The notes beneath the pieces are model-generated. The model did no database searches and was not told the origin of the DNA. It saw only the letters and a list, made by a program, of their open reading frames with translations. A DNA stretch of 64,000 nucleotides, taken from a virus (Duplodnaviria > Caudoviricetes). Of the stretch, positions 10,951 to 64,000 are shown one piece after another; positions within the stretch are counted from its first letter, which is position 1, and each line of letters starts with the position of its first letter. The stretch lies in the IMG/VR virus record IMGVR_UViG_3300037400_003374, positions 9,664 through 73,663 of that record. The stretch is one strand, 5' to 3'. Made by a program: the position numbers and the translations under genes.

Positions 10951-11816
10951 ATATCAGCATCTAGATCCTCACCCAAATGCTAAATTTCAACTATTAAATC
11001 TTTATCATCGCCGACAGTCTCCGGCAATCCTATTATATCAAACGCGGACACTGTTGGATCAGCCCTTTCTCCCAATCGTAAGTTAATATCGCTTACAATC
11101 CTCACCTTGGGCATATACAAAATATTCGTATAATTTTTGCCCTCATTTTCGTCTTTGGAATAAAATTTCCCTTCCAAAGTGAACAATCCATTGAAGCGTT
11201 CTTTCTACAATGTATAAGAAATTGCTTCATTCCCATACTCATAGTAGTAATCTACTACATATTTTTTATCAGTGTCTGCGAGAGTTTTCAAATTTTTATC
11301 TTCATACAATTCTAAGCAAGGTCTTTCGCCGCCAAACCCATCAGATTTGCCAGTGATTCTTTTGCCATAAATTTTATGTTGAACAGCGTCTCGCGCATAA
11401 TCAAAAATAAATGTTTTCTTGCGTTCATTCCCGACAGGCCAATGTTCTAAAAATAACTAATGCTAATCATTTAATTCCATTGGGCCTTCTGTCTTATGTA
11501 TCAAAATAGGCTTATTTCCACCTTTCAATGCTACTTTTGCGCCCAAAAGTATACCGAAACCAAACTAAGATACAACGCCTTCAGACATTTGGAAACGAAT
11601 CTCGGAACGATCTTGCCATATTACTTTAGGCTAATTCAGCCAGCCTCCACGCGCATAGACTTCTTTGCTTTGCTCTGAAAGCATTGACATAGCAATGTTC
11701 TAGAAATATAACACTGGTTCGTCAGCTTCAATATACCGGTCGCCAAATTGCATAGCGGTTTTTGCGCGAAGAGTAACTTCATATAGTTCTTTAATACCAA
11801 AATATTGTTCAATCAA
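10947..11816 (-). CDS. Tail-tube-protein paralog (289 aa, TAG read-through)
   Basis: TTG start with a GGTAGGTG RBS. The N-terminus (EQYFGIKELYEV...VLYF.NIAMS....VYARGGWLN.PKVIWQD) parallels the adjacent major tail protein (DKYGIKEVANV...VLFLDTLKVS....VAAQGGWGNPKLVQWD). Confidence 0.75.
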
Positions 11817-12946: not shown

Positions 12947-13726
12947 TTATGACTCGTCGCCATCAGCAATAGAGCGCATCCAATGCTTGAGTTGCGACTT
13001 TTCAATTTTTGCGCCAGCTAATGCCGCACGCTAATTTATATTAAACTAATCACGCCACCCCATCCGCTTGAGTTGATCATGAAAAGCGTAATAACTAATA
13101 TCCCAAATATTTATAATATTTAGGCCACAATCATTTAATGTTGCGCTTGCAACTAAATCTGAAAATTTTAAATCAGTTCCGTCTTGCTTTGCTTTCTTCG
13201 CTTTCGCACGACGGAGCTTCTCGCGTCGATCCCGCTACTGCCGCTTAAGACGTTTAGTAATTTCTGGGTCATCATCATAAATGATGATTTCGTCCTCTTC
13301 AGATTCTAGGAAACACATTCTACGTATTATATGCTAAAAATCATAGTATTTGCTTTCAGATAATATGTGTTTTTCAGCAATTGGACCTATAACAATTTGT
13401 GCTGGGTCTAAAGAAAATATTGCATCTTCATGTGTAAAAAACTTAAATCCTTTTTTTAATAAAGTATGAATTTGAGGGTCTAAATTCGCCATTAGTAAAA
13501 TATACTAAAAGTCACTTAATTTAGACATTAGTTCTTTTAATTCCGCATCTTTGTCATACTATGTTGTAGGTTTAGTTGCGGTTAAAACACTTACATATTT
13601 CTAAAAATTCTCATATCCCTCGTCAACAATTGCACCAATTGTTGGTGGGTAAATAGCGCAAATATCTTCAACGAAAATGGGGGATCCTTTTAAAAATTTT
13701 AAAACCTCATCGTCAGTTAAATTCAT
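12947..13726 (-). CDS. Hypothetical tail-assembly protein (259 aa, TAG read-through)
   Basis: MNLTDDEVLKFLKG...KHWMRSIADGDES*; continuous when TAG=Gln; lies in the tail module. Confidence 0.65.
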
Positions 13727-25767: not shown

Positions 25768-26446
25768 AGTTAGTTATGACTAACTAACTATTATAACAAG
25801 GGAAACGGGACGGCCCGGTTAGTTATGACTAACTAACTAATAGTACTAAGGACAAGTAGACCTCCGGTTAGTTACGACTAACTAACTAAGCGTACAAAAC
25901 TAGTTAGTTATGACTAACTAACTTATGTCGGGCACTGCGGGACCGGTCCCGTTGTCGCGAGTACGACACTAGTTAGTTACGACTAACTAACTACTCGAAC
26001 GGCGCTGTGGCAAAGCAAGAGTTAGTTATAACTAACTAACTATTATAGCGGAGGCGCAGACCTCCGGTTAGTTATGACTAACTAACTAGTACGTTACTAG
26101 TTAGTTATGACTAACTAACTATAGGTAGGGCTCCGCGGGACCGCACCAGTTAGTTATGACTAACTAACTATTTATAAGTGAAGTGTACGTCACTAGTTAG
26201 TTATGACTAACTAACCATTTTGTAATTAAAGCGCACGACACGAGTTAGTTATGACTAACTAACTATTATAAGGATAAAAGAGTAGCGTACAGGTTAGTTA
26301 TGACTAACTAACTATTATGAGAGCAGTGACGGAACGGACCAATTAGTTATGACTAACTAACTATCAGGTGGCGCGCAGGTTAGTTATGACTAAGTCACCA
26401 TTTTATGGTTTAACGTTAAACCGCAGTTAGTTATGACTAAGTCACT
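25768..26446. repeat. Array of 15 palindromic repeats AGTTAGTTA-TGAC-TAACTAACT
   Basis: Counted directly; start-to-start spacing mostly 46-50 bp (range 32-69). Confidence 0.95.
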
Positions 26447-26684: not shown

Positions 26685-26817
26685 TGTTTTGTCCTTCTTT
26701 CTTTTTTTTTGTTCCCTCTCAGGAACTGTCTATATTATAGCGCCGATTTGATTTTTTGTCAAGCACTTTTTTTAAAAAAGGGAAGGAAATTTTTTTCCTT
26801 CCCTTTTTCCTTCTTTC

Positions 26818-27448: not shown

Positions 27449-27582
27449 TTTCTTGTCCCTCTTTCTATTTATTGTTCCCTCAGGAACTGTCTATATTATA
27501 ATACCAAGTGTTATTCTTGTCAAGCACTTTTTTCAATTTTTTAAAAAAAGTTTTCAGCTTTACCGGAACGGCGTAAGTAACG

Positions 27583-27816
27583 AGTTAGTTATGACTAACT
27601 AACTATTATGTCATTATAATGGTAGTGCACGGGTTAGTTATGACTATATCACTATTATTAAAGTATCACTGTAGCGCACAAGTTAGTTATGACTATATCA
27701 CTATTATAGTTTAACGTTAAACCACAAGTTAGTTATAACTATATCACTATTCTAGTTTAACGTTACACTATAGCGGTTAGTTATGACTATATCACTAATG
27801 CGGTTTAACGTTAAAC
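27583..27816. repeat. Second repeat cluster: GTTAGTTATGACTA(TATCAC) variants interleaved with GTTTAACGTTAAAC palindromes
   Basis: Five GTTAGTTAT(G/A)ACTA units and three (near-)perfect 14-bp palindromes. Confidence 0.9.
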
Positions 27817-27895: not shown

Positions 27896-28345
27896 CTATG
27901 CTCTTGCAAGTTTCTGCAGGAATTTCTCATTTGTTATCTCGCAGTTATCAAACTTGATTTGTACGTTTTCTCCGTTTATCTGTATGTCTCCAGTGACGTT
28001 AAACGGTTCACTATTCTTTTTCCATGTCCCTTGTGTAAACCGTTCAACTATGATTCGTTCAAAGTTATCACCTTTGTTATAAGTGCTATCTGCTTTCAAG
28101 TCTTGTTCGTGTCCGCACATTGTAGCCAGCTTTAACAGTTCTGCTTTCTGAGCTTTGTTCAACTTAATGCGAACCTTTGCAAATCCTCCGCGCTTGCTTG
28201 ATGCATGGTCAAGACTTGTATACTGCTTTAATTCTTCAAAGGTGAGCGTTACGTAATACAGAATACCTTTTACTGCAAACCCAAGTATGTAAAGATGGGA
28301 AGCACTAAGGAGATTGTAAAGAGTCAGCATAGTTTCAAGTGTCAT
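27896..28345 (-). CDS. PD-(D/E)XK-like nuclease-fold protein, copy 1 (ends in TAG)
   Basis: Paralog of 32756-33199; FE...GD.....VQIK motif; the fold assignment is tentative. Confidence 0.75.
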   Translation of the reverse strand: MTLETMLTLYNLLSASHLYILGFAVKGILYYVTLTFEELKQYTSLDHASSKRGGFAKVRIKLNKAQKAELLKLATMCGHEQDLKADSTYNKGDNFERIIVERFTQGTWKKNSEPFNVTGDIQINGENVQIKFDNCEITNEKFLQKLARA

Positions 28346-29292: not shown

Positions 29293-29364
29293 TTTCAAAT
29301 CCTTCTTTCTTTTAATTCGTTCCCTCAGGAACTGTCTGTATTGTATCATGTTTCTCCGGCATTG

Positions 29365-30197: not shown

Positions 30198-30348
30198 TTT
30201 TCATACTTCCTTTCTTTTAATGTTCCCTCAGGAACTGTCTATATTATACAGCCGGCTATAAATTTTGTCAAGCACTTTTTTTATTTTTTTAAAAAACTTT
30301 TTTCCGGCATGGAAGGGAAAGGATTGTTTCCTTTCCCTTCCATATCTG

Positions 30349-31217: not shown

Positions 31218-31440
31218 AATACTTCAGTCCTTTCTTTGAAGTATCTATATGATAGCATAGGCGCGCGAAAATGTCAAGCGAAAATTTTTAAAAAATTTTT
31301 TTAAAAAAACTCTTGACAACTTGTATCAGATGAGTATAATATACATGACGGAACCGGAGAGAGGAGGGAGGAAACCGCCCAGTAGTTAGTTATGACTAAC
31401 TAACTAGCAACTATAAGAAAAAAGGCCTTCCGGCCTTTTT

Positions 31441-31611
31441 TCAATCCATCATGATAACTTTTCCGCTTTCATAAACAATGTATGATTCCTCATCCGTTGC
31501 AGTCTCATCAAAAGCTTCGCACCATGCAATCACTTCGCTAAGTGTCTCAAAAGTTACTTCTAAGTCAGTGGGTTTCATTCCTTCATAGTTGGTGTAAATC
31601 TCGTACTTCAT
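31441..31611 (-). CDS. Small acidic protein, distant family A member (56 aa; not in the ORF track)
   Basis: MKYEIYTNYEG...FETLSEVIAWCEAFDETATDEESYIVYE...; promoter, leader hairpin and bidirectional terminator 31418-31441. Confidence 0.7.
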   Translation of the reverse strand: MKYEIYTNYEGMKPTDLEVTFETLSEVIAWCEAFDETATDEESYIVYESGKVIMMD

Positions 31612-31804
31612 AATTCGTTGCCTTCTTTCTTTTAATCTGTTCCCTCAGGAACTGTCTATAGTATAATGCATAATAACCTTTTTGTCAAGTACTTTTTTTA
31701 AAAAAAAATAAAAAAAATTTTTTTCAAAAACCCCTTGACAAATATAAATAAATGACTATAATATAATTGACAGGCCGGAGAGGGGAGGGGGAGGTGGACC
31801 ATCG

Positions 31805-32620
31805 GTTAGTTATGACTAACTAACTAAAATTAGACACGACTAACTTTAGTTAGATAAAACTAACTAGAGTTAGTTATGACTAACTCAATAATAGTTAGTT
31901 GTAACTAACTGCCTCATCCACCGGTCCCGATCCGGTCCGTAAAGTCAAAGAAAGTCAAAGTCAAAGAAAGTCAAAATCAGGCGCGAGTTAGTTATGTCTA
32001 ACTATAGTTAGTCATGCCTAACTCAGGTGCCTTATCCGAACCGATCCGAAAAGTCAAAGAAAGTCAAAGTCAAAGACGAGTTAGTTATGACTAACTCAAT
32101 ATTAGTTAGTTATAGCTAATTATAGTTAGTTGCAACTAACTAGAGTTAGTTATGACTAAGTCACTATTAGTTAGTTGGCACTAACTAGAGTTAGTTATGA
32201 CTAACTAACGTTAGTTGTACCTAACTACAGTTAGTTGTGACTAACTATAGTTAGTCATGTCTAACACGAGTTAGTTATGACTAAGTCACTATTGGTTAGG
32301 TATAACTAACTAGAGTTAGCCGTGACTAACTGTAGTTAGTGGTGTCTAACTAAAGTTAGACAAGCCTAACTTTAGTTAGCTGAGACTAACAGAAGTTAGC
32401 TGGGACTAACGCTAGTTAGTCAAGACTAACTAAAGTTAGCTGCGTCTAACTGAAGTTAGATATAACTAACTAAAGTTAGCTGGGACTAACTGGAGTTAGC
32501 TGAGACTAACTCCGGTTAGCTGTAACTAACTAAAGTGAGCTGAATCTAACTGTAGTTAGTTGTAACTAACTTTAGTCAGCTGAACCTAACTCCGCCGGCG
32601 CTGGTTAGTTATGCCTAACT
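31805..32620. repeat. Central lattice of ~33 GTTAG-N6-CTAAC palindromes (20-bp period over about 32.29-32.59 kb) with two AAAGTCAAAG blocks
   Basis: Counted directly; sits where transcription switches from the minus to the plus strand. Confidence 0.95.
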
Positions 32621-32642: not shown

Positions 32643-32687
32643 TGTGGATAACTCTGTGGATAATTTTGTGGATAAAATTGTGGATAA
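32643..32687 (-). promoter_or_regulatory. Four tandem perfect DnaA boxes (TTATCCACA), 12-bp period
   Basis: TGTGGATAA at 32643, 32655, 32667 and 32679. Confidence 0.85.
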
Positions 32688-32755: not shown

Positions 32756-33199
32756 ATGACCAAGGAAATGATGCAGGAACTTTACAACAAGGTATCGGGG
32801 GCTCACAAGTATGCTCTGGGCTTTATCTTCCAGCACAAGCTGTATGCCGTCAAGCTGAGCTTTGAGGGAATCAGTAAGTATTTCAAGCTGGACCATGCAA
32901 GCTCTAAGAGGGGCGGATATGCAAAAATCCGTATTCGCCTGACCGCCGCGGACCGTGCTAAGCTGAGTGAAGTGGCGGAGCTGCTGGGAGCTGAAGAGCT
33001 GCTGACCAAGGACACCAAGTACAACAAGGGTGAGAACTTCGAACGGGAGCTGACAGAACGCTGGACCGGAGAAACCTGGGTAAAGGATAGTGTCCCCTTC
33101 TGGGTATGCGGTGATATCCGGGTAGACGGTGAAGAGATTCAGATCAAGCTGGACGGTGCGGAGCTGACCAACGAGAAGGTACTGGCAGGGCTGGCCTGA
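32756..33199 (+). CDS. PD-(D/E)XK-like nuclease-fold protein, copy 2
   Basis: LDHASSKRGG.AK.RI.L and NKGENFER...GDI...GEEIQIK.D are shared with 27896-28345. Confidence 0.8.
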   Translation: MTKEMMQELYNKVSGAHKYALGFIFQHKLYAVKLSFEGISKYFKLDHASSKRGGYAKIRIRLTAADRAKLSEVAELLGAEELLTKDTKYNKGENFERELTERWTGETWVKDSVPFWVCGDIRVDGEEIQIKLDGAELTNEKVLAGLA

Positions 33200-35771: not shown

Positions 35772-35865
35772 GTCAGAGGGACAAAGGATCACCTCTGGAA
35801 GTGCAAAGGGTAAGGGAATGATCCCCCAATTACACCGCAAGTGTCTTACCCTTTGGGCGACTCCC
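35772..35865 (+). ncRNA. Candidate gene-less structured RNA
   Basis: Between two promoters, no ORF; perfect 11-bp stem CAAAGGGTAAG/CTTACCCTTTG enclosing hairpins. Confidence 0.5.
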
Positions 35866-35966
35866 AAAAAAAATTTCAAAAACCTCTTGACATTCTAGTA
35901 CAAAAGTACTATAATGAATACACAACAGAGGAAGGAAAACCTCATCAAACCAGAAAGGCAACCCCT

Positions 35967-36287
35967 ATGAAAAAGTCCACTCTTCAGTCTCTCGTTTCCT
36001 ACCTGACCGAAAAGGGCGATGAGTCCATGCAGGAAGTCCTCGCAGAACTGACCGCAGAACTTGCAAAGGGACAGACCAAGGTTGATGCAACTCGGAAGGA
36101 ATATGATGAAATGCGTGAGCAGGTCATGGAAGTCCTCCGCTCTGCTACCCTTCCTGTTTCTGCGCAGGAGATCGCCGATGAGACTGGCCTTTCAAAGGGC
36201 AAGATCGTCTATGGTCTGACTCGGCTGTGGGCCGCAGATGTCGCAAAGACTGAGGGAAAGGTTAGCACCTACGCCCTCAAGGCCTAA
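35967..36287 (+). CDS. Coiled-coil + winged-HTH protein, family W copy 1
   Basis: SAQEIADETGLSKGKIVYGLTRLW...KTEGKVSTY; paralogs at 38121, 40019 and 41367. Confidence 0.8.
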   Translation: MKKSTLQSLVSYLTEKGDESMQEVLAELTAELAKGQTKVDATRKEYDEMREQVMEVLRSATLPVSAQEIADETGLSKGKIVYGLTRLWAADVAKTEGKVSTYALKA

Positions 36288-36324: not shown

Positions 36325-36439
36325 ATACAAGAGTTAGTTTCCTCTAACTCCGCCGGCGCAAAAAATTTTTTTAAAAACCCCTTGACAAGATAAGCATACT
36401 AGTGTATAATCTAACCATCAACTGAAGGAGGTCACCATT

Positions 36440-38120: not shown

Positions 38121-38450
38121 ATGAAAACTTCTTCTTACGAAACTGTGTACGCTTTCCTGACCGCTAACGGATTTGAAGACGCCGAGATTCTCGCTGAGTT
38201 TGAGAAGGAAATTAACCGTAAGGCCGAAGTAAAGCAGGCCAAGGACACTCTGTACTCCGAAGCAAAAGCAATCGTGATGTCCGCTATTGAAGGCGCTTCC
38301 GCTACCATCGGTGAGATTTATGAAGCGGTTGAATCTGAACTCCCTGAGGGCTTCACCAAGGGCATGTTGCAGTACGCCATTACTCGCCTGTGGAAGGACG
38401 AACTTGTCAAGACTGAGGGCAAGGTCAATCGGTACTCTCGCAAGGTCTAA
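38121..38450 (+). CDS. Coiled-coil + winged-HTH protein, family W copy 2
   Basis: Paralogy; terminator at 38457-38480. Confidence 0.8.
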   Translation: MKTSSYETVYAFLTANGFEDAEILAEFEKEINRKAEVKQAKDTLYSEAKAIVMSAIEGASATIGEIYEAVESELPEGFTKGMLQYAITRLWKDELVKTEGKVNRYSRKV

Positions 38451-38601
38451 TCTCTAAGGCTCGCCTAGCGAGCCTTTTTTATGGCTATGAGTTAGTTGTG
38501 TCTAACTGCGCCGGCAAATTTTTTTTGAAAAAACTCTTGACATTTGTTTGAAAATCGATTATAATACCATTGTCACGAAGAGAAAGAAAGGTTGTGTAAA
38601 C

Positions 38602-40018: not shown

Positions 40019-40345
40019 ATGAAGAAGTCTACTTTTGAAGCTATCCGCACCGCTCTTACCAAACTGGGTTATGACAATGCCGAAGTCCTTGCCGAGCTGG
40101 ACAAGGAAATCAACAAAGGCGCTGATGTCAAGGCTAAGAATTCTGAGGTCTACGAGTCCTTCCACGACATTCTGATTGACAACCTCGCCACCTCTCCCGC
40201 AACTTGTGGCGAGATCTACGAGGCCATCAAGGACAACCTCCCTGAGGGTATCACCAAGGGCAAGGTTCAGTATGCTCTGACTCATCTGTGGCAGGATGAG
40301 ATTGTAAAGATTGAGGGCAAGCCTAATACCTACCGCAAGGCATAA
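40019..40345 (+). CDS. Coiled-coil + winged-HTH protein, family W copy 3
   Basis: Paralogy. Confidence 0.8.
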   Translation: MKKSTFEAIRTALTKLGYDNAEVLAELDKEINKGADVKAKNSEVYESFHDILIDNLATSPATCGEIYEAIKDNLPEGITKGKVQYALTHLWQDEIVKIEGKPNTYRKA

Positions 40346-41366: not shown

Positions 41367-41699
41367 ATGAAAAAGTCTACTATGAATGCTATCCTGTCCC
41401 TCATCTCCACCATGGATTCTCCCGAAGCTGAAACTGTACGCAATGAGCTGACCGCTGAGCTGAACAGGGGAGCTGAAAAAGCTCAGGCAAATCGGGAGCT
41501 GTATGAGACCGCTTGGGATGCGGTTTATGGCGTGCTGGATGTCGAATATCCTGCTACTGTCGCTGAGATCTATGAAGCTGTAAAAGACTCTCTGCCCGCT
41601 GGTTTCACTAAGGCCAAGGTACAGTATGCGCTGGGACACTACTGGAACAAAGATGTCGTAAAGCATGAGGGCAAGGTTAACACCTACACTCGGGCTTAA
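41367..41699 (+). CDS. Coiled-coil + winged-HTH protein, family W copy 4
   Basis: Paralogy; terminator at about 41711-41733. Confidence 0.8.
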   Translation: MKKSTMNAILSLISTMDSPEAETVRNELTAELNRGAEKAQANRELYETAWDAVYGVLDVEYPATVAEIYEAVKDSLPAGFTKAKVQYALGHYWNKDVVKHEGKVNTYTRA

Positions 41700-42274: not shown

Positions 42275-42338
42275 TTCGGCCTTGACTTTCTCTTCATTCT
42301 ATGCTATAATGGTCCACGTTGAAAGGAGCAATTTGATT

Positions 42339-43025
42339 ATGAAAGATTTGTACATGGTATTTGATACGGAAACTTGCAACACTCCCAAAATTGATGGGCA
42401 GCTTGATACCAGCGCGGGCCAGGTTTATGACTTTGGTTTTCAGATTGTAGACAATGAAGGGAATGTTTATGAGGAACATTCATACGTCAATGAAGATGTA
42501 TTCTTTGATCTTCCCGAAGCTATGCAAGAATCATTCTTTGCTGACAAAATCCCGCAGTACTTGGAAGGACTGCGCAACGGTTCCCATCAAATGGTTAACA
42601 CTTGGGATTTATACAGGATTGTCAGGAAAATGGTCGAGAAGTACGACATTAAAGCCTTCATTGCGCACAATGCGCGCTTTGACGTTGCAGTATTAAATGC
42701 AACACTGCGTTATCAAACTAAAAGCGTTCGGCGGTACTTCTTCCCTTATGGTATCCCCATTTGGGACACAATGAAGATGGCTAACGATACAATTTGTAAA
42801 CTGTCGTCATATAAACAGTTTTGTGAAGTCAATGGATATATGACCAAGCATAAAATTCCACAGGTGCGCAAAACAGCGGAAATTTTATGGCGCTTCCTTC
42901 AGAAAGATAATGACTTTGAAGAAAAGCATACGGGCCTTGAAGACGTAAAAATTGAGGCGCAGATTTTCGCGGAGTGCGTGCGGAGACATAAGAAAATGGA
43001 ACGCCTCGCAGACCTTGACAAATAA
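42339..43025 (+). CDS. DEDDh 3'-5' exonuclease, copy 1
   Basis: ExoI FDTET, ExoII AHNARFD, ExoIII HTGLED. Confidence 0.85.
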   Translation: MKDLYMVFDTETCNTPKIDGQLDTSAGQVYDFGFQIVDNEGNVYEEHSYVNEDVFFDLPEAMQESFFADKIPQYLEGLRNGSHQMVNTWDLYRIVRKMVEKYDIKAFIAHNARFDVAVLNATLRYQTKSVRRYFFPYGIPIWDTMKMANDTICKLSSYKQFCEVNGYMTKHKIPQVRKTAEILWRFLQKDNDFEEKHTGLEDVKIEAQIFAECVRRHKKMERLADLDK

Positions 43026-43577: not shown

Positions 43578-43706
43578 GCGGGTTAGCTTCGGCTAACCCT
43601 GCCGGCCAAAAATTTTTTTCGGAAACCTCTTGACAAGGCCGAAAAGTATGATATAATATACAGGAAAGTTGAAGGAAAACAACTCAAACCAGAAAGGTAT
43701 TTAAAA

Positions 43707-44372
43707 ATGAATTTCCTTGTACTTGATGGTGAGACTTGCAACACTCCCAAAATTGATGGCCAGTTAGATGTCAAAAATGGTCAGGTTTATGACCTTGGTG
43801 GAATGGTCATTGATGAGTATGGACAGGAAAAGATGCGGTTTAGCGTAGTAAATGAAGATGTATTCTTCAGAATGCCCTATCAGATGAAAGAAGCGTATTA
43901 CAGCGAAAAAATCCCGCAGTACATTAAAGACATTAACAGCGGGAAACGCAAGGTAGTAAATACTTGGCAGATGTGGAAAATGGTACAGAACATTTGCAAA
44001 GAATACAAAGTGCAGGCAATTGTTGCACATAATGCATACTTTGATATTCAGACATTAAATGCTACTATGCGCTATCAGACTAAATCAGCAAAGCGTTATT
44101 TCCTTCCCTATAAAATGAACGTCATTGACAGCTTAAAAGTTGCACGTAAAGTATTTAGCAATGATATTGATTACATTCAGTTCTGTAAGGAAAATGGCTA
44201 TATGACCAATACCAAAACCCCTCGCCCTAGACTTACCGCCGAAGTATTATGGCGCTATATCAGCAATGACAATGATTTCATTGAAAGTCATACAGGATTT
44301 GAAGATGTGGAAATTGAAAGCAAAATTTTTTCAAAATGTCTTGACAAAATCCGCAAACATGATATAATGTAA
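43707..44372 (+). CDS. DEDDh 3'-5' exonuclease, copy 2
   Basis: LDGET / AHNAYFD / HTGFED; shares ETCNTPKIDGQLD with copy 1. Confidence 0.85.
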   Translation: MNFLVLDGETCNTPKIDGQLDVKNGQVYDLGGMVIDEYGQEKMRFSVVNEDVFFRMPYQMKEAYYSEKIPQYIKDINSGKRKVVNTWQMWKMVQNICKEYKVQAIVAHNAYFDIQTLNATMRYQTKSAKRYFLPYKMNVIDSLKVARKVFSNDIDYIQFCKENGYMTNTKTPRPRLTAEVLWRYISNDNDFIESHTGFEDVEIESKIFSKCLDKIRKHDIM

Positions 44373-54416: not shown

Positions 54417-54455
54417 TTTTACACTATTACACTAATTGACACGGAGTTGATAAGT

Positions 54456-54803
54456 ATGAAATACCCAAACCAAAAGAAAATAACGTTGGGTCATCTTAGT
54501 GATATAACCCATCGTAAAGAAGTAGAAGAAGCATGGTTACAGCCATTAAAATGGGAACCTATAAAAGAAGCTATGCGTGTACTAAATGGCAACGCCTTTA
54601 AACTATGGCTTTATCTTATGTCATGGGAAGGAAAAGGAGAATATGAATTTTCTCCAGCGCATTTAGCTAAAGAACTAAAAATAAGTGATGAGGGCGCACG
54701 TAATGCGCGAAAAGAATTAATAGATAAGGGGTATATTGTTGAAGTATCAGAAAATAAATTGGAATTTTTCCCAATTTCAAGAACCACTATCGCCGCCAAA
54801 TAA
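54456..54803 (+). CDS. Winged-HTH protein resembling the N-terminus of a replication initiator
   Basis: LNGNAFKLWLYL...SPAHLAKELKISDEGARNARKELIDKGYI. Confidence 0.65.
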   Translation: MKYPNQKKITLGHLSDITHRKEVEEAWLQPLKWEPIKEAMRVLNGNAFKLWLYLMSWEGKGEYEFSPAHLAKELKISDEGARNARKELIDKGYIVEVSENKLEFFPISRTTIAAK

Positions 54804-55265: not shown

Positions 55266-55793
55266 ATGACAAACAGCGTATGGACTTTCCCTTACTCTAA
55301 ACTCTACTACCTAACCCACCCTTGGAGATGGTTCCGGCAACTATGGCAGAATTGCCACGATGCCTACCGGCGCGCCCGCTACGGATGGACTTATACCGAT
55401 GTCTGGAACTGGGATGATTGGTTCTTGCGGACCGCCGTCCCGATGCTACGTTACTTGGCCGACCATAACCAGGCCTACCCGCTCTATGAAGAATTTGATA
55501 CGCCTGAAAAGTGGCAACAGTGGCTTCGTCGCATGGCGGACCTATTGGAGAGCGGCGACGAATATTGGCAGGACGCCCATAATGAATATTACAAGGACTA
55601 CATGGACTCCTTCAATATCAATTGGCGCCATCCTGTACAAGAAAAGGATAGCAATGTAATAATTACCGCAACTAGCGAGGAACTCCAACGCAAGTACCTT
55701 GCTCGCGCAAAAGAATTATCACTCGCAGGTGAAAAAAATGTCATAGAAGCATTCAACGAAATAGGTAAAAAATTCCATGCCATATGGGATTAA
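55266..55793 (+). CDS. Hypothetical protein
   Basis: Start corrected to MTNSVW (AGGAG RBS). Confidence 0.65.
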   Translation: MTNSVWTFPYSKLYYLTHPWRWFRQLWQNCHDAYRRARYGWTYTDVWNWDDWFLRTAVPMLRYLADHNQAYPLYEEFDTPEKWQQWLRRMADLLESGDEYWQDAHNEYYKDYMDSFNINWRHPVQEKDSNVIITATSEELQRKYLARAKELSLAGEKNVIEAFNEIGKKFHAIWD

Positions 55794-55863
55794 AATACTA
55801 AGTTTTTTTATAATCATATTACTTATTTTAATAAAGGGGATAACCCCAAAAAGAGGTGATACA

Positions 55864-58800
55864 ATGAATATTTTAACAAAACGAGGCAACTTGGATAATG
55901 TATTGACATATGAACATATATGCGATACTACCGCAGACCGAGACAATATTGAAAGCAAGTACATTACATTGGGCACCGTCTGTATTGTCCTCTAGGGACA
56001 AAATGGCGCAATGGAAGTTTACATGGCTGACTCTAGTAAGAATTGGCATGATATACTCATGATTAGCGGCAGCGGTTCCTCTTCTGCGCCCGCAGGACTC
56101 TCCATTCATGTTTGTACAGCGGATGAAGTGGCAAACGGCAAGCCAAACATTGAGGCTCCTTTGAGCACGGAATTGTATCTAGTGCCATCTTCTAACTCTA
56201 GTGAAGATAACTTATACGACAAGTATATATGGGTTAATGGCGCATGGGAGGTCTTTGGCGGCGGAGAGACAGTTGACCTAACACCTTATGCTACTAAAGC
56301 ATGGGTATAGGAGCAGAACTATTTAACCGAGCATCAGAACCTTGCCGCATGGGCAAAAGCGGCCACGAAACCTACCTATACTGCCGCAGAAGTTGGCGCT
56401 GCGACACAGGCCGATATTGCTACGGCTATTGGAGACATTCATTCATTTGATGTTGAGGTTGTACAGAGTTTGCCTGCAACAGGAGTGACACATACTATTT
56501 ACTTTGTGCCGAAAGCAGGAAGTACGAATGACGTGTATGATGAGTATTTGTATATTAATAATGCGTGGGAAATGATAGGGAATACACAAGTAGATTTGAG
56601 TAACTATGTTACCACTACTACTCTCGCCGCAATTCCAGTGCGGGCAGGCGTGGGTAATAAGGCATTATGTGAGGGCGGAGACGATCCGAATCCTTCCACG
56701 AAAGAAGGAGAAGGACCAATATAGGGAGTAACTATCACTATCCCACCCACATTGACGCAGGCAACCGGAGATTATGCTCATGCTGAAGGTATAGGTACCA
56801 ATGCAAGTGGTGTGGCATCTCATGCAGAAGGCGCCCGTACCACTGCTAGTGGGAATCCATCTCACGCAGAAGGCGGAGAAACTATTGCTAGTGGACTTAC
56901 TTCACATGCAGAAGGCGATAACACTACAGCTAGTGGCGCGAGTTCGCACGCTGAAGGTACTTACGCCACCGCTAGCGGAGATAATTCACACGCCGAAGGC
57001 GGTGGTACTGCTGCTAGCGGAATGGATTCTCACGCCGAAGGCGATGGTACTATTGCTAGTGGATATGCTTCACATGCCGAAGGCGGTGGTACTACTGCTA
57101 GTGGTAATCAATCTCACGCCGAAGGTGAAGGCTCAACTGAGGCCCTTACAGTAACTATAGACGACGAGGAAAAAACATTGCAAGCCGGGGCCTATGGTGT
57201 CGCAGACCACGTTGAAGGTAAGAATACTATAGCTAACAGTAACTACGCAGGCGAAGAGGACACGCAATATGCCGCTCATGCCGAAGGATTTGAAACATTG
57301 GCCCTCGCGCAAGGAGCTCATGCTGAAGGCGATAGTTCACAAGCACTCGGACTTAATTCACATGCTGAAGGCGAATACACCATTGCAAGCGGCATAGGTG
57401 CCCACGCCGAAGGGTCTGAAACGCAAGCTCTTAGAGATGGCGCTCACGCTGAAGGCGCCGGAACAACGGCAAGTGGTTCTTACTCACATGCCGAAGGTGT
57501 AGATACTACAGCATCTGGCCCATACGCGCATGCTGAAGGTAACACCACAACAGCAAGCGCAGTAAATACTCATGCAGAAGGTGATACTACTACTGCTAGT
57601 AAAGCGGGTGCTCATGCAGAAGGCGACAATACTACTGCTAGTGGAGAATCTTCTCACGCAGAGGGTCATAACACTAACGCGACTGGCGATAAGTCCCATG
57701 CAGAGGGCAGCGGCACTACTGCTGGTGGAGAAGATTCACATGCTGAAGGATATTAGTCAACTGCATCTGGTGACTATTCTCATGCCGAAGGGCAAAATAC
57801 GAATGCAAGTGCTGCAGCCGCCCATGCCGAAGGCACGACAACGAGAGCAAGTGGTCAGTATTCACATGCAGAAGGCGGCGGTACTAAAGCGATTGGCGGT
57901 CAATCACATGCTGAAGGTGCAGGCACTACTGCTAGCGGACAGAGTTCACATGCTGAAGGTACCACTACAACAGCATCTGGTATGAATTCACATGCCGAAG
58001 GAACTTATACAACTGCATCCGAACAGCAATGTCATGCTGAAGGTGCGAATACCACTGCAAGCGGTCCATGCTCTCATGCTGAAGGTGTGAGTACTACTGC
58101 TAGTGGACAGAATTCACATGCAGAAGGTAACGGAACCGTTGCAGCGGGTGATTATTCTCATACTTCTGGCCATGGCACAACCGCAAATGGTAGCGGACAG
58201 TTTGTTTTTGGAGCGTACAATATTGCTGAAACAGTATCTCGTAGTGCAGATCGCGGTACGTATATTGAAATCGTTGGTAATGGAGCAAGTAGCAGTTCAC
58301 GCTCCAACGCTCGCACTCTCGATTGGTCAGGCAATGAAGCACTTCAAGGTAGTCTTACGCTCGCTAAAGGCACGGCCAACGAAGCCATTCTCACAGGCGC
58401 TAAACTCAACACTCTTACTGAAGCAGCGGACGTCGAAACATTACTGGCAACTAAAGATGACTTGGCAACCGGAAAAGTAGTTAATGATGCTGTCAAAGCA
58501 GGCGATGTCTGGTCAGAAAATTTCCTCACACAAAGCGGCATGTATGCTACTACGGCCTTGGATGTAAGTGATTATCTAGATGGAAAGATAATAATTAAAA
58601 TTGGACCAAATGATGCTCACTCCGGCACTCGTCTCTGCGGCTTCTGTGATAGTAATGGTGTAATGTCGGATATGTATAAAGAAAAATTCTTAACATATTA
58701 CGATGCGGGCGACTATCAATTTGCGGAATTGCCTATCACGAACACGCATTTCTTCTTCTCTTGCTCCACAAAATCTTTCCTAGAGATTAGTGCTAAGAAA

Positions 58801-60762
58801 GTTGGCAAGTCCGCGTTTAATCTTACTAAGATTATAGATTCAATTCCCGAGAGATTCCCAAAGAATCAGGTACTCACGCAGAAGAGTTCGTTAGCAAAGA
58901 ACTACTATATCTCTGAGAATGCTACCGTAGGCGACAAATGGACAGACTTTAAGGTAAGCAACTCCGGCTCCATTTATACTAGCTATGCAATTAATGTACG
59001 TAGCTTTGCAGGCGAAATACTTGTTATTAAGATTGGCGGCAGAGACGCCCATACAGGTGTTAGGACTTGCGGCTTCTGCACTGCAACAAGTGTCATTACT
59101 TCAATATATAAGGAAAAGGAATTACCCTATGTTGAAGAGAATGGATATCTAGTAGCGGAAATACCAATTACAGACCAGTTCTTCTTCTTCTCTTGCTCAG
59201 CGAAAGATTACTTGTTAATCTATGCAAAAGACTCAGGCTCATTAGTAGAAAAGACTGTGGCCTATGTGTCTCCTAGCGGCGACGATGGGGATAACAATGG
59301 TTCTGTGGTATATCCATATGCTACCATTAACAAGGCTATCTCTGAGGGCGCGAAAACTATCTATCTTGCTAGTGGAGTATATTCTTAGACAATAAACCTT
59401 GACCTCTTAAAGGGCAGAGAACTAAATCTTATCAATACGTCCATGGTAAATAAAGTAGTATTTAAAGCGCCAAATAGTACCATAGCAACATCAGAAACCC
59501 AGGTTAGCGGCTATACTAAAGTATATTCTGCTACCGTAAGTACTACTTTCTCCGAAGGCAATATATGGTTATTCCAAGACGGAGTAGCGGACACCAGCAC
59601 ATTGATTCCTGCCGCAGAGATACTACCAGAACAACGCGGCCAAACCTATAGATGTTCCGATACTAAGATAGAACGGTGCACGGCCACTACTGAAAGTGAA
59701 GCATTAACCGAAATTGAAAATGCAACTGAATATAAGTGGTTCCAAAACGGCACTACACTATACTTCAGCAGACCAGCCGCCGTATCTTCTACCAACCCGA
59801 TTTGCGGAAGCACTGGATACACATTATTTAACCATAAGCCCGTTAAGTGCACTATCAATATGACTGGTATTGACGTTAAGTACATGACATTAAATCTAAA
59901 CAATACCGCCTTAAGCACAATCACTGATTGCTCTGTGTCCAACGTGTTTGGCGCTGGCGCGTATATCTTTGATGGCGCAACTGGCTTACAGCTTATCCAT
60001 TGTGAAGCAGCTCGCGCCTTTACAGGCACCATGGGTGATGGTTTTAACGCGCATAGTATTACTACTAGCGGCGACCCGTTCGCGCATCAAACCATTGCTA
60101 CCCTAACAGATTGCTGGTCACATGATAATAAAGACGATGGCATTTCGGCGCATGAGCGCAGTGAATTCTTCGTCAATGGCGGCCTATATGAATACAATGC
60201 CACTGGCGGCGGTGTTACTCCTTCCTATGGCTCACACTGCACCTGCATAGGCGTTGTGGCCCGCAAGAATGGCGAAGGCGGATTTATCTACACCGGCAGC
60301 TCTACTGCGGCTGAAGGTGGCATTAATGGCCAGCTTAAGTGCATTGACTGCTTATCAGAAAGCAACAACCTTGATACATCAGTAGTAAGCGCAGGCTATA
60401 AACTAACTGAACCCAACATTATGACACTTATTAATTGTAAAGCACTTAATGAGGACTATGGATTTTACGTTGATAATGCGCAAGCGAAAATGTATATCTA
60501 TGATTCTCATGCTATCAATTGTACTTCAGAGAAGGGCGGAGTATTAAATAACATAAATGTAACAACCTCAAATCCAATTCCAGCCCCACCAGCCGCTGCT
60601 GGAGTATATTTACTTAGAGCAACAGTTGCAGATGGAGCAACACATTACTCTTGGGTAATGGAATCAGCAATTGTTGAACCGGACACAGGCACCGAAGGTG
60701 ATAACACCGAAGGTGGAAGCACAACTCCCACCGATGGAAGTGGAGAAACCTTAGACCCATAA
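55864..60762 (+). CDS. Large adhesin/receptor-binding or depolymerase-like protein (1,632 aa, TAG read-through)
   Basis: Six ORF-track pieces lie in one frame, joined by TAG. About 31 14-aa HAEG repeats (YadA-head-like), a duplicated ~85-aa domain and a C-terminal pectate-lyase-like beta-helix (YVSPSGDD.NNG...PYATINKA). Confidence 0.8.
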
Positions 60763-60767
60763 TAATC

Positions 60768-60800
60768 AAAAAAGAGAGGCATTAAATTGCCTCTCTTTTT
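60768..60800. terminator. Bidirectional intrinsic terminator
   Basis: AAAAAGAGAGGCA/TGCCTCTCTTTTT. Confidence 0.85.
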
Positions 60801-60863
60801 ATTTGACTTTTTTTAAATTTCTGGTATAATTTAAATATAAAGAAAAGGAAAGGAAATGAGATA

Positions 60864-61061
60864 ATGCCGACGAATTTGAATGAACTTGCTCGTATGATTG
60901 CCCGCCGCGATGGTATTTCCCTTAATGAAGCTTATGCCGCAATAAACGAAACCGCGGACCTTCTCAATGACGCTATTGCCGCAGGAAGTATAACAATGGC
61001 AGAAGAAATTCTGCTTGGAGAATTGGGTATTGAACTTGATTATCTTGACCTGTTTCTGTGA
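60864..61061 (+). CDS. Small hypothetical protein, paralog of 62169-62363
   Basis: Shared ELA..IA.RD..S...A...I..A...A.G....A.....EL.LE..YL..F. Confidence 0.7.
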   Translation: MPTNLNELARMIARRDGISLNEAYAAINETADLLNDAIAAGSITMAEEILLGELGIELDYLDLFL

Positions 61062-61070
61062 GGTGGCAGT

Positions 61071-61403
61071 ATGACTGATAGGTCTTTAGGTGTAATATAC
61101 ACCATTAAGCAAAAAGGTACTAGTGATGTTACGCTTGCCGCATTCTTGCAAAAATTTTATAGTACCGCTTACATATACAATCGAGATGAGATAGATAAAA
61201 TTCTGCGCGAGACCTGTGTTGACTTTATCCAAAGCGCAGATGACCCAATACGTGAACTGCGGCGTTACTTTCTCAGCGTAAATATTTATTCACTTGTAGA
61301 AATAACTGAGCATACTAGAATGATAAACTTTTTGCAGCAAATTCAAATATCAAAAGATGGCAACTATATTAATGATTTTAGGGATATGAAAGGAGAATTA
61401 TAA
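61071..61403 (+). CDS. Hypothetical protein
   Basis: GAGGTGG RBS. Confidence 0.6.
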   Translation: MTDRSLGVIYTIKQKGTSDVTLAAFLQKFYSTAYIYNRDEIDKILRETCVDFIQSADDPIRELRRYFLSVNIYSLVEITEHTRMINFLQQIQISKDGNYINDFRDMKGEL

Positions 61404-62182
61404 TGGATAACACCAGTCTTGGCGACCGCATAAAAATGTATGAAAACGTAGAACGGAAGTACTTAACGAGGCGGCTTCCGACTATTATCAGAGTAGATGG
61501 CGAGCATTTTCATAGCTATACGCGTGGCTTTGACCGCCCTTTTGACCTTGGTTTCATTGCCGCAATGCAACAAACCGCAAAGCAGCTATGTGAGAACATC
61601 ATGGGCGCGAAAATAGCATATACGCAGTCGGATGAAATCACCATTCTCTTGCGCGACGATGATACCCTTGTTACGCAGGCTTGGTTCGATAAGAACTTGC
61701 AGAAAATTGTGAGTACCGCGTCCTCAATGGCTACCTATTTCTTCAACAAAAACATTGCGCGCCTTTACACCCAAGGCTTGCCATCTCCGGTACCTTATGA
61801 TTGGTTTCATGCTTCTGCGGGCGTTAAGAAGGCATATTCCGAAGGCCGCTTAGCCATCTTTGATGCCCGTGCATTCATCGTTCCTCCAGAAGAGGTTATG
61901 AACGTATTTGAATGGCGCCAGCAAGACTGCATCCGCAACTCCATACAAATGATTGCACGCGCCCACTTCTCCCACTCAGAATTAATTGGCGTCTCATGTG
62001 CCGACATGCAGACGAGACTTCTCGATGAGAAAAATGTTGATGTAGAAAACTACGATGTCTACTTGCGGCGTGGTTCTTGTGTCGTTAAAGATGCAACCGG
62101 CCATTGGACGATTGACACCCATATTCCTATCTTCCATGAAGACCCAACGTATGTGGTGGTGGAAAGACATGAATCAGTTTGA
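61403..62182 (+). CDS. thg1: tRNA(His) guanylyltransferase Thg1-like protein
   Basis: LGDRIKMYE...IIRVDG.HFH, YTQSDEI, FD.R.F...P, YF/FEWRQ.DC.RN motifs. Confidence 0.9.
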   Translation: MDNTSLGDRIKMYENVERKYLTRRLPTIIRVDGEHFHSYTRGFDRPFDLGFIAAMQQTAKQLCENIMGAKIAYTQSDEITILLRDDDTLVTQAWFDKNLQKIVSTASSMATYFFNKNIARLYTQGLPSPVPYDWFHASAGVKKAYSEGRLAIFDARAFIVPPEEVMNVFEWRQQDCIRNSIQMIARAHFSHSELIGVSCADMQTRLLDEKNVDVENYDVYLRRGSCVVKDATGHWTIDTHIPIFHEDPTYVVVERHESV

Positions 62183-62363
62183 TGAATTGGCTAGCTTGAT
62201 TGCTTGGCGCGATGATGTTTCCTTTTCTGCGGCTTTGTCTGTTATTGAAAAGGCCGCAATATGTATACGAGAAGCGCTGGCGTATGGTGACTATACATCC
62301 GCTAGCGACTTCGTGGCCCATGAGTTAAAATTAGAACCGGCTTATTTAAGATTTTTTGCGTAA
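62169..62363 (+). CDS. Small hypothetical protein, paralog of 60864-61061
   Basis: Paralogy. Confidence 0.65.
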   Translation: MNQFDELASLIAWRDDVSFSAALSVIEKAAICIREALAYGDYTSASDFVAHELKLEPAYLRFFA

Positions 62364-62378
62364 AAGGAGTACTTGGTA

Positions 62379-62546
62379 ATGGTTGAAAATTTGTATACAA
62401 TTTTAGTAGGTGGAAGGACTGCGGCAGAGCATATGAATTTGGAAGATGCTTGCCTATTCATACAGGCTTTTATGGAAAAATATTTTGCTGAACCCGACTT
62501 AAGTATTGAATTAAAGAGGGAATCAAATACTGAAGATATGAAGTAA
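62379..62546 (+). CDS. 55-aa hypothetical protein (not in the ORF track)
   Basis: AGGAG RBS. Confidence 0.5.
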   Translation: MVENLYTILVGGRTAAEHMNLEDACLFIQAFMEKYFAEPDLSIELKRESNTEDMK

Positions 62547-62577
62547 GATTGCGTATTGTAAGGGAGGAGGTGAAAAT

Positions 62578-63192
62578 ATGAAGGTCAAAATCACTACCAA
62601 AGAGAATATGAATTTCTACTCTTGCCCGAAAAACGCTAAAATTGATATAGATTTGGAAGATTATATTGCATGTGTAGTTGCTTCAGAGATAGGTAATGCA
62701 CCATTAGAGGCATGTAAAGCACAGGCCATCGCCGCGCGTACCTTTGCGATTTCACGCGGGGTGCTAAGCGGAAAACCTATTTCTGATAGCGCAAGTGTCG
62801 CTTAGGCATTCCGAGCGACAAGAAATAATTACACGAACTGTATTCAGGCCGCTAAAGAGACTATGGCGGAAATCTTAACCTTTAATGACAAACCAATAAG
62901 CGCGGTTTATAGCGACTGTAATGGCGGTAGGACATATTCCAGTGAAGAAGTGTGGGGCAGCAGCAAACCGTATCTTGTTGTACAGAAGGACATGTGGGAT
63001 GATAGCTCTAAAAGAAATGGCCATGGCGTAGGTTTAAGTCAACGCGGAGCTATTAATGCCGCAAAGCAAGGAAAAACTTATAAGGAGATACTTAGTTTTT
63101 ATTATCCAGGCGCAAAGATTAAGCCATATCGTAGCGCAGTGCTTTCACGATTGCGCTCTGTTGTTAATAGGATACTAGAAAGGATAAAATGA
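62578..63192 (+). CDS. SpoIID/LytB-domain lytic transglycosylase-like protein (204 aa, one TAG read-through)
   Basis: VVASEIG, EACKAQAIAARTFA, DSASVA(Q)AF, GHGVGLSQ.GA...A..G..Y.EIL.FYYPG. Confidence 0.85.
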
Positions 63193-63617
63193 ATTATAAA
63201 CATTATTTGGAAATTGCAAGTGAATGCGCGAAAAATGCATCCTATAGTGGCGCGAATAAGGTAAAGTTGGGGTGCATAGCAGTGTACCATGGGGCAGTTC
63301 TTGCGAAAGGATGTAACATGGATAAAACGCATACCCAACAGGAGAAGTATCGGCACTTGCGCTATGACCCAAAGAAATTGAAAACATACTGCCCTTCTAA
63401 GTGTCATGCGGAAATCTCTACGCTTAATAAAATTAAGTATTTAGATATAGATTTTTCCAAGGTAGTCCTGGTAATTGCGCGAGAGCATCGCAATGGAGAT
63501 AGCGCGCTGGCGCGGCCTTGTCCTGCATGTCTTGCGGCGATCCGGGAACTAAAGATTAAAACAATTGTGTATTCTACGGAAGAAGGATATGCAGTTGAAT
63601 ACTTAAATAATTTTTGA
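63189..63617 (+). CDS. Zn-dependent cytidine/deoxycytidylate-deaminase-family protein
   Basis: HAE and PCPAC motifs. Confidence 0.85.
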   Translation: MNYKHYLEIASECAKNASYSGANKVKLGCIAVYHGAVLAKGCNMDKTHTQQEKYRHLRYDPKKLKTYCPSKCHAEISTLNKIKYLDIDFSKVVLVIAREHRNGDSALARPCPACLAAIRELKIKTIVYSTEEGYAVEYLNNF

Positions 63618-63727
63618 TTGATGAAAATGAAACCCCAAAAACCAATATAAAGTTTTCTTCTTTTATTTGAGGAAAAATGTCCAACGCCGCATGAGGCGTT
63701 ATTTTTTAATTTGGGAAAAAGGAGGTA

Positions 63728-64000
63728 ATGAGAATGGCTTTAGGATTGGATGATTATAAAAAGACCCCATGGGAAGCGGAAATGCCAATTACGCAAGATC
63801 GTATGAACAATCTAGAGGGAGGCGTGTATGTAAATAGGGAAGCGCTTAAACAACTAGATAGTGCCATTACTGAACAAGGTAATAATATAACTACATTAAG
63901 TACTAATGTTGATACAAAACTAAATTAGGACTAGGTAGATAATAGAATTACTCTTCAGCTTAGTAGTATTAGTTCAGATAGTAGAATGGGTAGAGATGCC
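63728..64000 (+). CDS. N-terminus of a probable fiber/virion protein (TAG read-through; runs off the window)
   Basis: YKKTPW...IT.DRMNNLEGG; GGAGG RBS; open to the window end if TAG=Gln. Confidence 0.55.

Follow-up and report, generated by a model that had tools for sequence, protein, structure and literature searches.

A phased palindrome lattice among the early genes of a TAG-recoded phage is most likely a dock, and possibly also a sink, for the host iron sensor

A host metalloregulator site on a phage genome is known from the tox promoter of corynephage beta, which carries a single DtxR operator. Clustered operators can sequester their regulator instead of governing a neighboring gene, as at datA of Escherichia coli and the DnaA-box clusters of Bacillus subtilis, and in the laboratory Fur titration assay multicopy operators derepress the regulon. 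Tandem protein-binding repeats with a period of about two helical turns are found in plasmid centromeres (parC–ParR of pSK41 and R1, sopC–SopB of F, tubC–TubR) and in the iterons of the lambda origin. How a DtxR-family protein reads its operator is seen in the crystal structure of IdeR: each subunit reads one CCTAA repeat, a dimer touches the first and the third repeat, and the site of a single dimer reads TTAGG-N4-CCTAA, equivalent to TTAG-N6-CTAA (PMC8464063). MepR of Staphylococcus aureus, a member of the MarR family, binds GTTAG-N4-CTAAC, with two abutting sites at mepA, and regulates an efflux-pump regulon (PMC3936728). The lytic Bacillus phages phi29 and Nf carry host Spo0A boxes (and parS sites) near early promoters and origins, and their development depends on the state of the host (PMC2731898). 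In the literature that we searched we found no description of a natural phage-borne metalloregulator sink, of a phage operator sponge or of a GTTAG-N6-CTAAC motif in phages.

Here we analyze a stretch of 64,000 nucleotides (the window), which comprises bases 9664–73663 of one viral contig; this contig measures 73.7 kb and lacks terminal repeats. The contig is about 41% complete according to CheckV, and complete relatives have about 179 kb. Comparison at the DNA level with sequenced phages gave no informative match. With the standard code the outer arms contain almost no long open reading frames. When TAG is read as an amino acid, a frame of 3626 amino acids with 118 in-frame TAGs appears and the leftward late operon is restored; its products include a protein with a sigma-factor-like PHROG match, the large terminase, the portal and a virion structural protein. 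This reading is needed for the late genes at 3–25354 (minus strand) and at about 55,700–64,000 (plus strand) of the window. The source is a gut or rumen phage with TAG recoding. The middle of the window, from about 25.4 to 55 kb, uses the standard code and holds small genes, most of which are preceded by a near-perfect TTGACA-17-TATAAT promoter of their own; between 25.4 and 49 kb we count 53 promoters that deviate by one mismatch or none. We therefore regard the middle as the early region of a TAG-recoded phage with a Firmicutes-type host. Two paralogous DnaQ-like exonucleases (phrog_20187/phrog_192) are encoded there at 42282–43025 and 43707–44372; homologs of these flag phage contigs which have been binned into bacterial metagenome-assembled genomes (L097, L139).

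The exact palindrome GTTAG-N6-CTAAC, which itself holds TAG on both strands, occurs 57 times in the window where 0.05 occurrences are expected, and none of 100 shuffles reached this number. All 57 sites lie between 25.8 and 48.1 kb and the rest of the contig has none. The preliminary description of this DNA had reported about 33 units in 815 bp at a point of divergent transcription, about 15 of them consecutive at exactly 20 bp, and these observations hold. Between 31805 and 32619 we count 27 exact and six one-mismatch units of the form (A)GTTAG-N6-CTAAC(T), thus 33 units once two overlapping offset artefacts are removed. They are arranged in three blocks: block A (31805–31909) with five units, block B (31987–32022) with two units spaced by 20 bp, which corresponds to the host-type pair described below, and block C (32080–32619) with 26 units. 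Block C includes the run of 15 units at exactly 20 bp (32295–32590), which is preceded by a run of six (32170–32270). Where the phase slips in the lattice, it does so by 25-bp steps. To the left a leftward early promoter (31660–31688, minus strand, TTGACA-17-TATACT) drives an open reading frame of 56 amino acids (31611–31441); in the opposite direction a perfect sigma-70 promoter, P1 (31735–31762, plus strand, TTGACA-16-TATAAT), fires into the lattice, the first unit of which starts 42 bp past its −10 element.

The arms of the units carry 1.5–2.0 bits of information per position, the N6 and N4 positions 0.2–1.1 bits. We compared 77 phase-defined units from the window and from further arrays. 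Their arms show 37 changes, each confined to one side; 22 of these disrupt a base pair, and not one is compensated. In the runs of 15 units in the window and of 18 units in the related contig L001, the free positions are nearly all diverged and yet there is not a single indel. We take this as the mark of half-sites which are read independently and kept in helical register, to which a selected hairpin would be a misfit; the earlier proposal that fixed arms with free spacers reflect protein contacts is thereby borne out. Against an assembly artefact speaks that the lattice units differ among themselves and that comparable arrays are present in independent contigs.

The same palindrome is scattered over about 24 further intergenic places in the window. 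A single invariant long form of 22 bp accounts for about 25 of the 57 sites, so that the spread may be due to module duplication and not to site-by-site selection, and this counts against the explanation that we favor below. Two more arrays, at 25769–26440 and 27580–27816, are built from a 22–27-bp long form, AGTTAGTTATGACTAACTAACTA or ...CTATATCACTATTAT, with a period of about 49 bp and unique GC-rich spacers; they look CRISPR-like and have no cas gene. Many scattered palindromes between 36333 and 47393 are followed within 2–4 bp by GCCGGC (e.g., 36349–36357, 38507–38515, and 43598–43606) and then by an A/T tract and a consensus promoter, an order which recurs as a kind of junction grammar between early gene cassettes. 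Several leftward early promoters share a 5′ leader with a conserved small hairpin, GTTCCCTCAGGAAC, directly past the −10 element (26711–26726, 27474–27487, 29319–29332, and 30222–30235).

We scanned bacteria, with one genome per species, for two phased units and retrieved at least 120 bacterial contigs. The carriers among the matches listed come from Oscillospiraceae, Lachnospiraceae, Christensenellales, Erysipelotrichaceae, Melainabacteria, Treponema, Actinomycetota, Fibrobacter, Proteobacteria and others, with GC contents from 31% to 74%. Exactly two units are present in 114 of the 120 listed loci. The bacterial pairs follow the same grammar as the lattice, that is, invariant arms, a free N6 with a faint central TA, and a free N4. 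The genes directly downstream (110 listed) code for FeoA in 19 cases, for a DtxR-family protein with both Pfam domains (PF01325 and PF02742) in nine, for an Fe-type solute-binding protein in eight, and for FeoB and FTR1 in two each. Feo, ABC or DtxR clusters lie within 2.5 kb in 75 of the 120 listed loci, and in 23 listed loci a gene for a compact DtxR/MntR-type regulator of 120–158 amino acids is found beside the pair. Relative to the DtxR-like gene the pair is located 63–127 bp upstream, heading its operon, or just past its stop codon. At feoA the pair overlaps the −10 element of a TTGACA-17 promoter or starts 7–10 bp past it, which is the classic geometry of repression. Among the matches listed, runs of ten or more units are confined to phage contigs. 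Long or multiple arrays turned up in three seemingly bacterial loci; these code for homologs of the early proteins of this phage lineage, and we therefore consider them to be binned phage.

The arms, the N6 spacer, the iron-regulon context and the agreement with the IdeR geometry suggest that the unit is a DtxR-family operator for a single dimer. The dyad of the lattice fits TTAG-N6-CTAA and varies at the inner G/C of TTAGG/CCTAA. Like the known iron boxes of DtxR, IdeR and MntR, it would offer one TTAG-N6-CTAA dyad per dimer (PMC8464063), and in bacteria it stands in an iron-uptake regulon. It differs from these boxes in that the dimer sites follow in tandem at 20 bp on the same face of the helix and are not interleaved at 5 bp on opposite faces, in that there are 33 copies rather than one or two, and in that none lies on a promoter and no cargo gene under their control is apparent. 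MepR shares the identical 5-bp half-site and is a winged-helix dimer, but its spacer is 4 bp instead of 6 bp and its regulon is unrelated (PMC3936728). Judged by sequence, the lattice is thus probably a 33-fold repeat of a host-type iron-repressor operator at the bacterial 20-bp tandem spacing. Four functions had been considered in the preliminary description: a replication-origin filament, a centromere-like partition site, a repressor sink and an attI-like acceptor site. As the unit is found on bacterial feoAB and DtxR-family promoters, the repressor sink fits best of the four. The acceptor site lacks a partner, since neither the contig nor two complete relatives gave a tyrosine integrase (PF00589) above the cut-off.

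The lattice is embedded in a hub of further sites. Between P1 and the first unit lies a purine- and GGA-rich leader, CCGGAGAGGGGAGGGGGAGG (31769–31804, plus strand), and upstream of P1 there is an A/T tract (31689–31734). The two gaps of the lattice contain operators of CtsR, whose site is a direct heptad repeat, A/GGTCAAA-NAN-A/GGTCAAA (PMC12634643). Two overlapping exact operators (31943–31975, plus strand, AGTCAAA-GAA-AGTCAAA) are found in the first gap, and a third exact operator with one extra heptad (32052–32075, plus strand; consensus from PMC12634643) in the second. These three are the only exact matches, where about zero are expected. In the same operator search of the window the boxes of Rex, CIRCE, LexA, cre, CodY and Fur were not enriched. 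To the right of the lattice follow four perfect DnaA boxes, TGTGGATAA (32643–32687, plus strand), with a period of 12 bp; the window has no other perfect TTATCCACA 9-mer. They end 5 bp before the −35 element of P2 (32693–32721, plus strand, TTGACA-17-TATACT), the promoter of the first rightward early gene. This gene (32756–33199, plus strand) codes for an orphan protein of 147 amino acids and is for the lattice only a matter of context. A paralog of the protein with 53% identity is encoded at 27896–28345, and metagenomes yielded 829 or more homologs, about 70% identical; E96, D120, Q129 and K131 are invariant. No match was obtained in Pfam, PHROG, PDB profiles, Foldseek, VIA or Atlas. From the invariant residues a PD-(D/E)xK fold had been guessed; no support was found and the idea was dropped. 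On the leftward arm, at 31313–31442, lies a paralog of the P1 module, in which a perfect promoter facing right is followed by a leader rich in GGA, CCGGAGAGAGGAGGGAGGA, by a single palindrome and by a bidirectional terminator; this module could give rise to a small RNA of about 95 nucleotides. The leader downstream of P1 is conserved in this paralogous module and in the closest relative, L008.

We then compared the locus with related phages. Seven contigs of IMG/VR have at least three phased units, with GC contents from 30% to 49%. The contig L001 is syntenic: late genes are followed by the array, with runs of 18 and about ten units, and then by an early HAD-like gene. In 23 further viral loci the 147-aa gene is the first rightward early gene, as in all relatives, and each of the 23 has between two and 16 exact palindromes. 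L008 shares P1 and the G-rich leader, its two units there start likewise 42 bp past the −10 element, and a single CtsR operator follows; one CtsR operator is also kept upstream of the 147-aa gene in L010 and L013. At the homologous P1 site there are two units in L008, four in L025 and about 28 in L001, compared with 33 in the window. Thus, the type of site and its position are conserved, and the copy number ranges from two to 33. Two complete 179-kb relatives have 18–19 sites each, against none for a control with the reversed pattern, and only in the promoter-dense early region. The extended preferences of the arms vary by lineage, e.g., GTTAGA...TCTAAC in the complete relative G006. Where the window has DnaA boxes, L008 (5865–5885), L025 (5838–5860) and L001 (4575–4592) share a further conserved palindrome, (C)TTTAGCG(Y)GCTAAAG, together with GTGTGAAAG-type repeats. 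This KorB-like TTTAGC-N2-GCTAAA of the relatives is absent from the window, and the hub appears to exchange operator modules between relatives. In L025, a relative with 54% GC, four perfect DnaA boxes in mixed orientation are located at 205–285 beside two palindromes, 5.7 kb upstream of the 147-aa gene. Phased units are also found in two small, near-complete unrelated phages, with three to five units next to a genome end (L033 of G004 at 41–96; L034 of G005 at 11685–11780 and 13228–13283). One of these two phages has inverted terminal repeats of 29 bp.

Which protein reads the lattice? A DtxR-family domain was not found in the contig, and five relatives, of which two are complete, gave none above the cut-off; nor did we find one in the two complete unrelated small phages with phased units beside their termini. 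As no phage-encoded DtxR protein was found and as sites for the host proteins CtsR and DnaA lie in the same place, a host repressor is the simplest reader. We infer this from sequence identity and context, and it is in this sense that the lattice most likely docks the host iron sensor.

The positions of the sites give a hint at the function. Core promoters are free of all 57 sites, where by chance 5.4 of the 18 scattered ones would be expected to overlap one (P about 0.002). It appears that the phage places the operators where its own promoters stay on, which is the opposite of the layout in the host. The scattered sites of the right arm are located 31–42 bp upstream of the −35 element with no fixed helical phase. 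This is an unusual place for the action of a repressor and counts against the explanation that we favor. A class I-type activator site was considered for them and rejected, since the distances to the −35 element range over one helical turn.

We suggest that the lattice works in the following way. In an iron-replete host the metal-loaded host repressor would coat the lattice, with adjacent dimers placed almost on one face of the helix. The coated lattice would block read-through from P1. As each genome brings 57 exact sites and phage replication multiplies this number, repressor would be drawn off the host operators and iron uptake would be derepressed. As a whole, this explanation, a DtxR/IdeR/MntR-type operator lattice which serves as a roadblock for P1 and as a sink for the host repressor, has in our view an even chance of being correct. 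For the function taken separately, a platform close behind P1 on which the host repressor docks and which is both roadblock and high-capacity sink, we would go somewhat less far and call it possible. The lattice may soak up the host iron sensor; whether the sink or the gate is the selected function is a matter of speculation, and what the phage would gain from derepressed iron uptake of the host is conjecture. The lattice would differ from the known titration loci, which are chromosomal or artificial, in being borne by a phage. A wider version is more tentative still: the lattice, the CtsR operators and the DnaA boxes could together form a non-coding DNA sponge which sequesters the iron repressor, the repressor of class III stress genes and DnaA, with the dosage set by repeat expansion multiplied by genome replication.

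The main rival is a sensory role, in which nothing is titrated. The host DtxR-type repressor would read operators which gate P1 (with CtsR and DnaA, the whole hub) according to the iron and stress state of the host, and the 33 copies would be a largely neutral expansion by slippage. This fits the relatives with two to four units better, as these keep the order of promoter, leader and operator, in L008 even at the same offset. The host operators are likewise placed at or just past the −10 element, and the Spo0A boxes of phi29 and Nf are a precedent (PMC2731898). These phages are, like the one described here, of virulent type with operators of a host global regulator near early promoters, but they have a handful of sites which overlap and repress promoters or origins, instead of a phased, promoter-avoiding lattice of 33 sites for another regulator family. 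Some findings count against this role. All 33 units retain their arms while the free positions have diverged, and so each unit appears to be under selection and the number appears to matter. Long arrays arose repeatedly in phages and, among the matches listed, never in bacteria. Moreover, the first gene is driven anyway by the downstream P2, an 11/12 promoter. We therefore consider a purely sensory role somewhat unlikely.

The reader could also be encoded by the phage itself. A phage winged-helix protein would then assemble the lattice into a nucleoprotein platform for global control of the early genes or for genome organization, at a site which resembles the host operator or was copied from it. 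The phage has genes for no fewer than five small winged-helix proteins. Four paralogous 109-aa proteins (38121–38450, 40019–40345, 41367–41699, and 35841–36287) have a predicted fold in which a long helix at the N-terminus is followed by a winged helix at the C-terminus (pLDDT 90.6; Z 8–10), and an HTH_36 protein is encoded at 54447–54803, 22 kb from the lattice. Three relatives encode winged-helix proteins of 122–124 amino acids (L221 1760–2128 in G003, L156 1435–1803 in G006, and L157 1432–1806 in G007). The recognition helix of these, ISxxxVxGS (S-x-P/R-x-V-S/T), aligns with that of DtxR-family host regulators, and the metal-binding domain is lacking. They could be metal-blind readers of the GTTAG-N6-CTAAC sites or competitors for them, and a homolog could sit in the missing part of our contig, which covers about 41% of the genome. 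A 109-aa paralog, the HTH_36 protein or such a homolog would thus be the candidates. MepR sets an example of a MarR-type winged helix which reads GTTAG half-sites (PMC3936728), and the differences in extended arm preference among lineages are also in favor of a phage reader. Yet the Pfam matches of the 122–124-aa proteins are to the generic MarR clan and not specifically to DtxR, neither family is present in all array-bearing phages, and both are absent from the two complete unrelated phages with phased units. The 109-aa family was rejected as a general reader, as it was found, weakly, in one of the five array-bearing records which had been retrieved by pattern. The 147-aa protein, which co-occurs with the sites in all 23 relatives, was rejected as well; it is absent from the same five records and its co-occurrence is a lineage effect. 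Finally, a phage-encoded reader leaves unexplained why the arms, the N6 and the 20-bp tandem period match the feo operators of the host exactly. In our view it is an improbable alternative to the host repressor.

In the preliminary description the leading candidates had been a replication origin and a partition site, with the lattice as their iteron or centromere core, and part of the evidence does point in this direction. Four DnaA boxes are adjacent to the lattice, an A/T tract is present as well, and the cumulative GC skew of the 73.7-kb contig, which had been proposed as a check, indeed has its minimum at the array. In two complete relatives the minimum is at or near the homologous locus (18 kb with the gene at 17.9 kb in G007; 47 kb with the gene at 41.3 kb in G006). 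The period of about 20 bp recalls the parC repeats of pSK41 and R1 and the iterons of the lambda origin, and phased repeats of this kind would build a continuous nucleoprotein filament as in these systems. The skew is, however, confounded by the switch of the transcribed strand. In close relatives which keep the architecture the array falls to two to four units, which, by the yardstick set in the preliminary description, argues against an essential core of an origin or centromere. A partition site lacks its partners: ParB_N and ParA-like AAA_31 domains did not score above the cut-off in the contig or in the two complete relatives, and no Rep-like neighbor was found. The lattice further differs from the centromeres in that its copy number is not conserved and its repeat equals a host transcriptional operator in sequence; for an origin or centromere, the identity with the feo operators would have to be coincidence. 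Also, the palindrome is scattered over the other intergenic places. The lattice is thus probably neither a replication origin nor a partition site, and we rate such a core as very unlikely; an origin close to the hub and apart from the non-conserved array is possible.

That the array acts as RNA, the P1 transcript forming 33 small hairpins as an RNA sponge or a processed RNA, is extremely improbable: a consensus promoter fires into the array, the predicted fold is far more stable than that of shuffles (z = −10) and the module at 31313–31442 resembles a small transcription unit with a terminator, but palindromes give such stability trivially, the stem is fixed and not co-varying as judged by the arm changes, no Rfam family reached the threshold for the array, and the match to DNA operators is left unexplained.

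In summary, what was known before are isolated operators of host regulators on phages which switch a gene or the lytic cycle, as for DtxR at tox and Spo0A in phi29. New here are 33 operators at cooperative spacing, which avoid the phage promoters, vary from two to 33 copies among relatives, and lie beside operators of two other host regulators. For bacteria, two TTAG-N6-CTAA dyads at a distance of 20 bp emerge as a widespread operator of a compact DtxR/MntR-type regulator of feoAB in many phyla. The pair is carried by the cultured Faecalitalea cylindroides ATCC 27803 and Clostridium sp. OM02-18AC, which makes direct testing feasible. If the lattice and its neighboring sites do form a DNA sponge, it would reprogram iron uptake and stress proteolysis of the host without any phage protein. 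If the array titrates the repressor, this would be a mechanism of takeover by DNA only, invisible to protein-based annotation, and infection would be tied to host iron uptake in the Firmicutes of gut and rumen.
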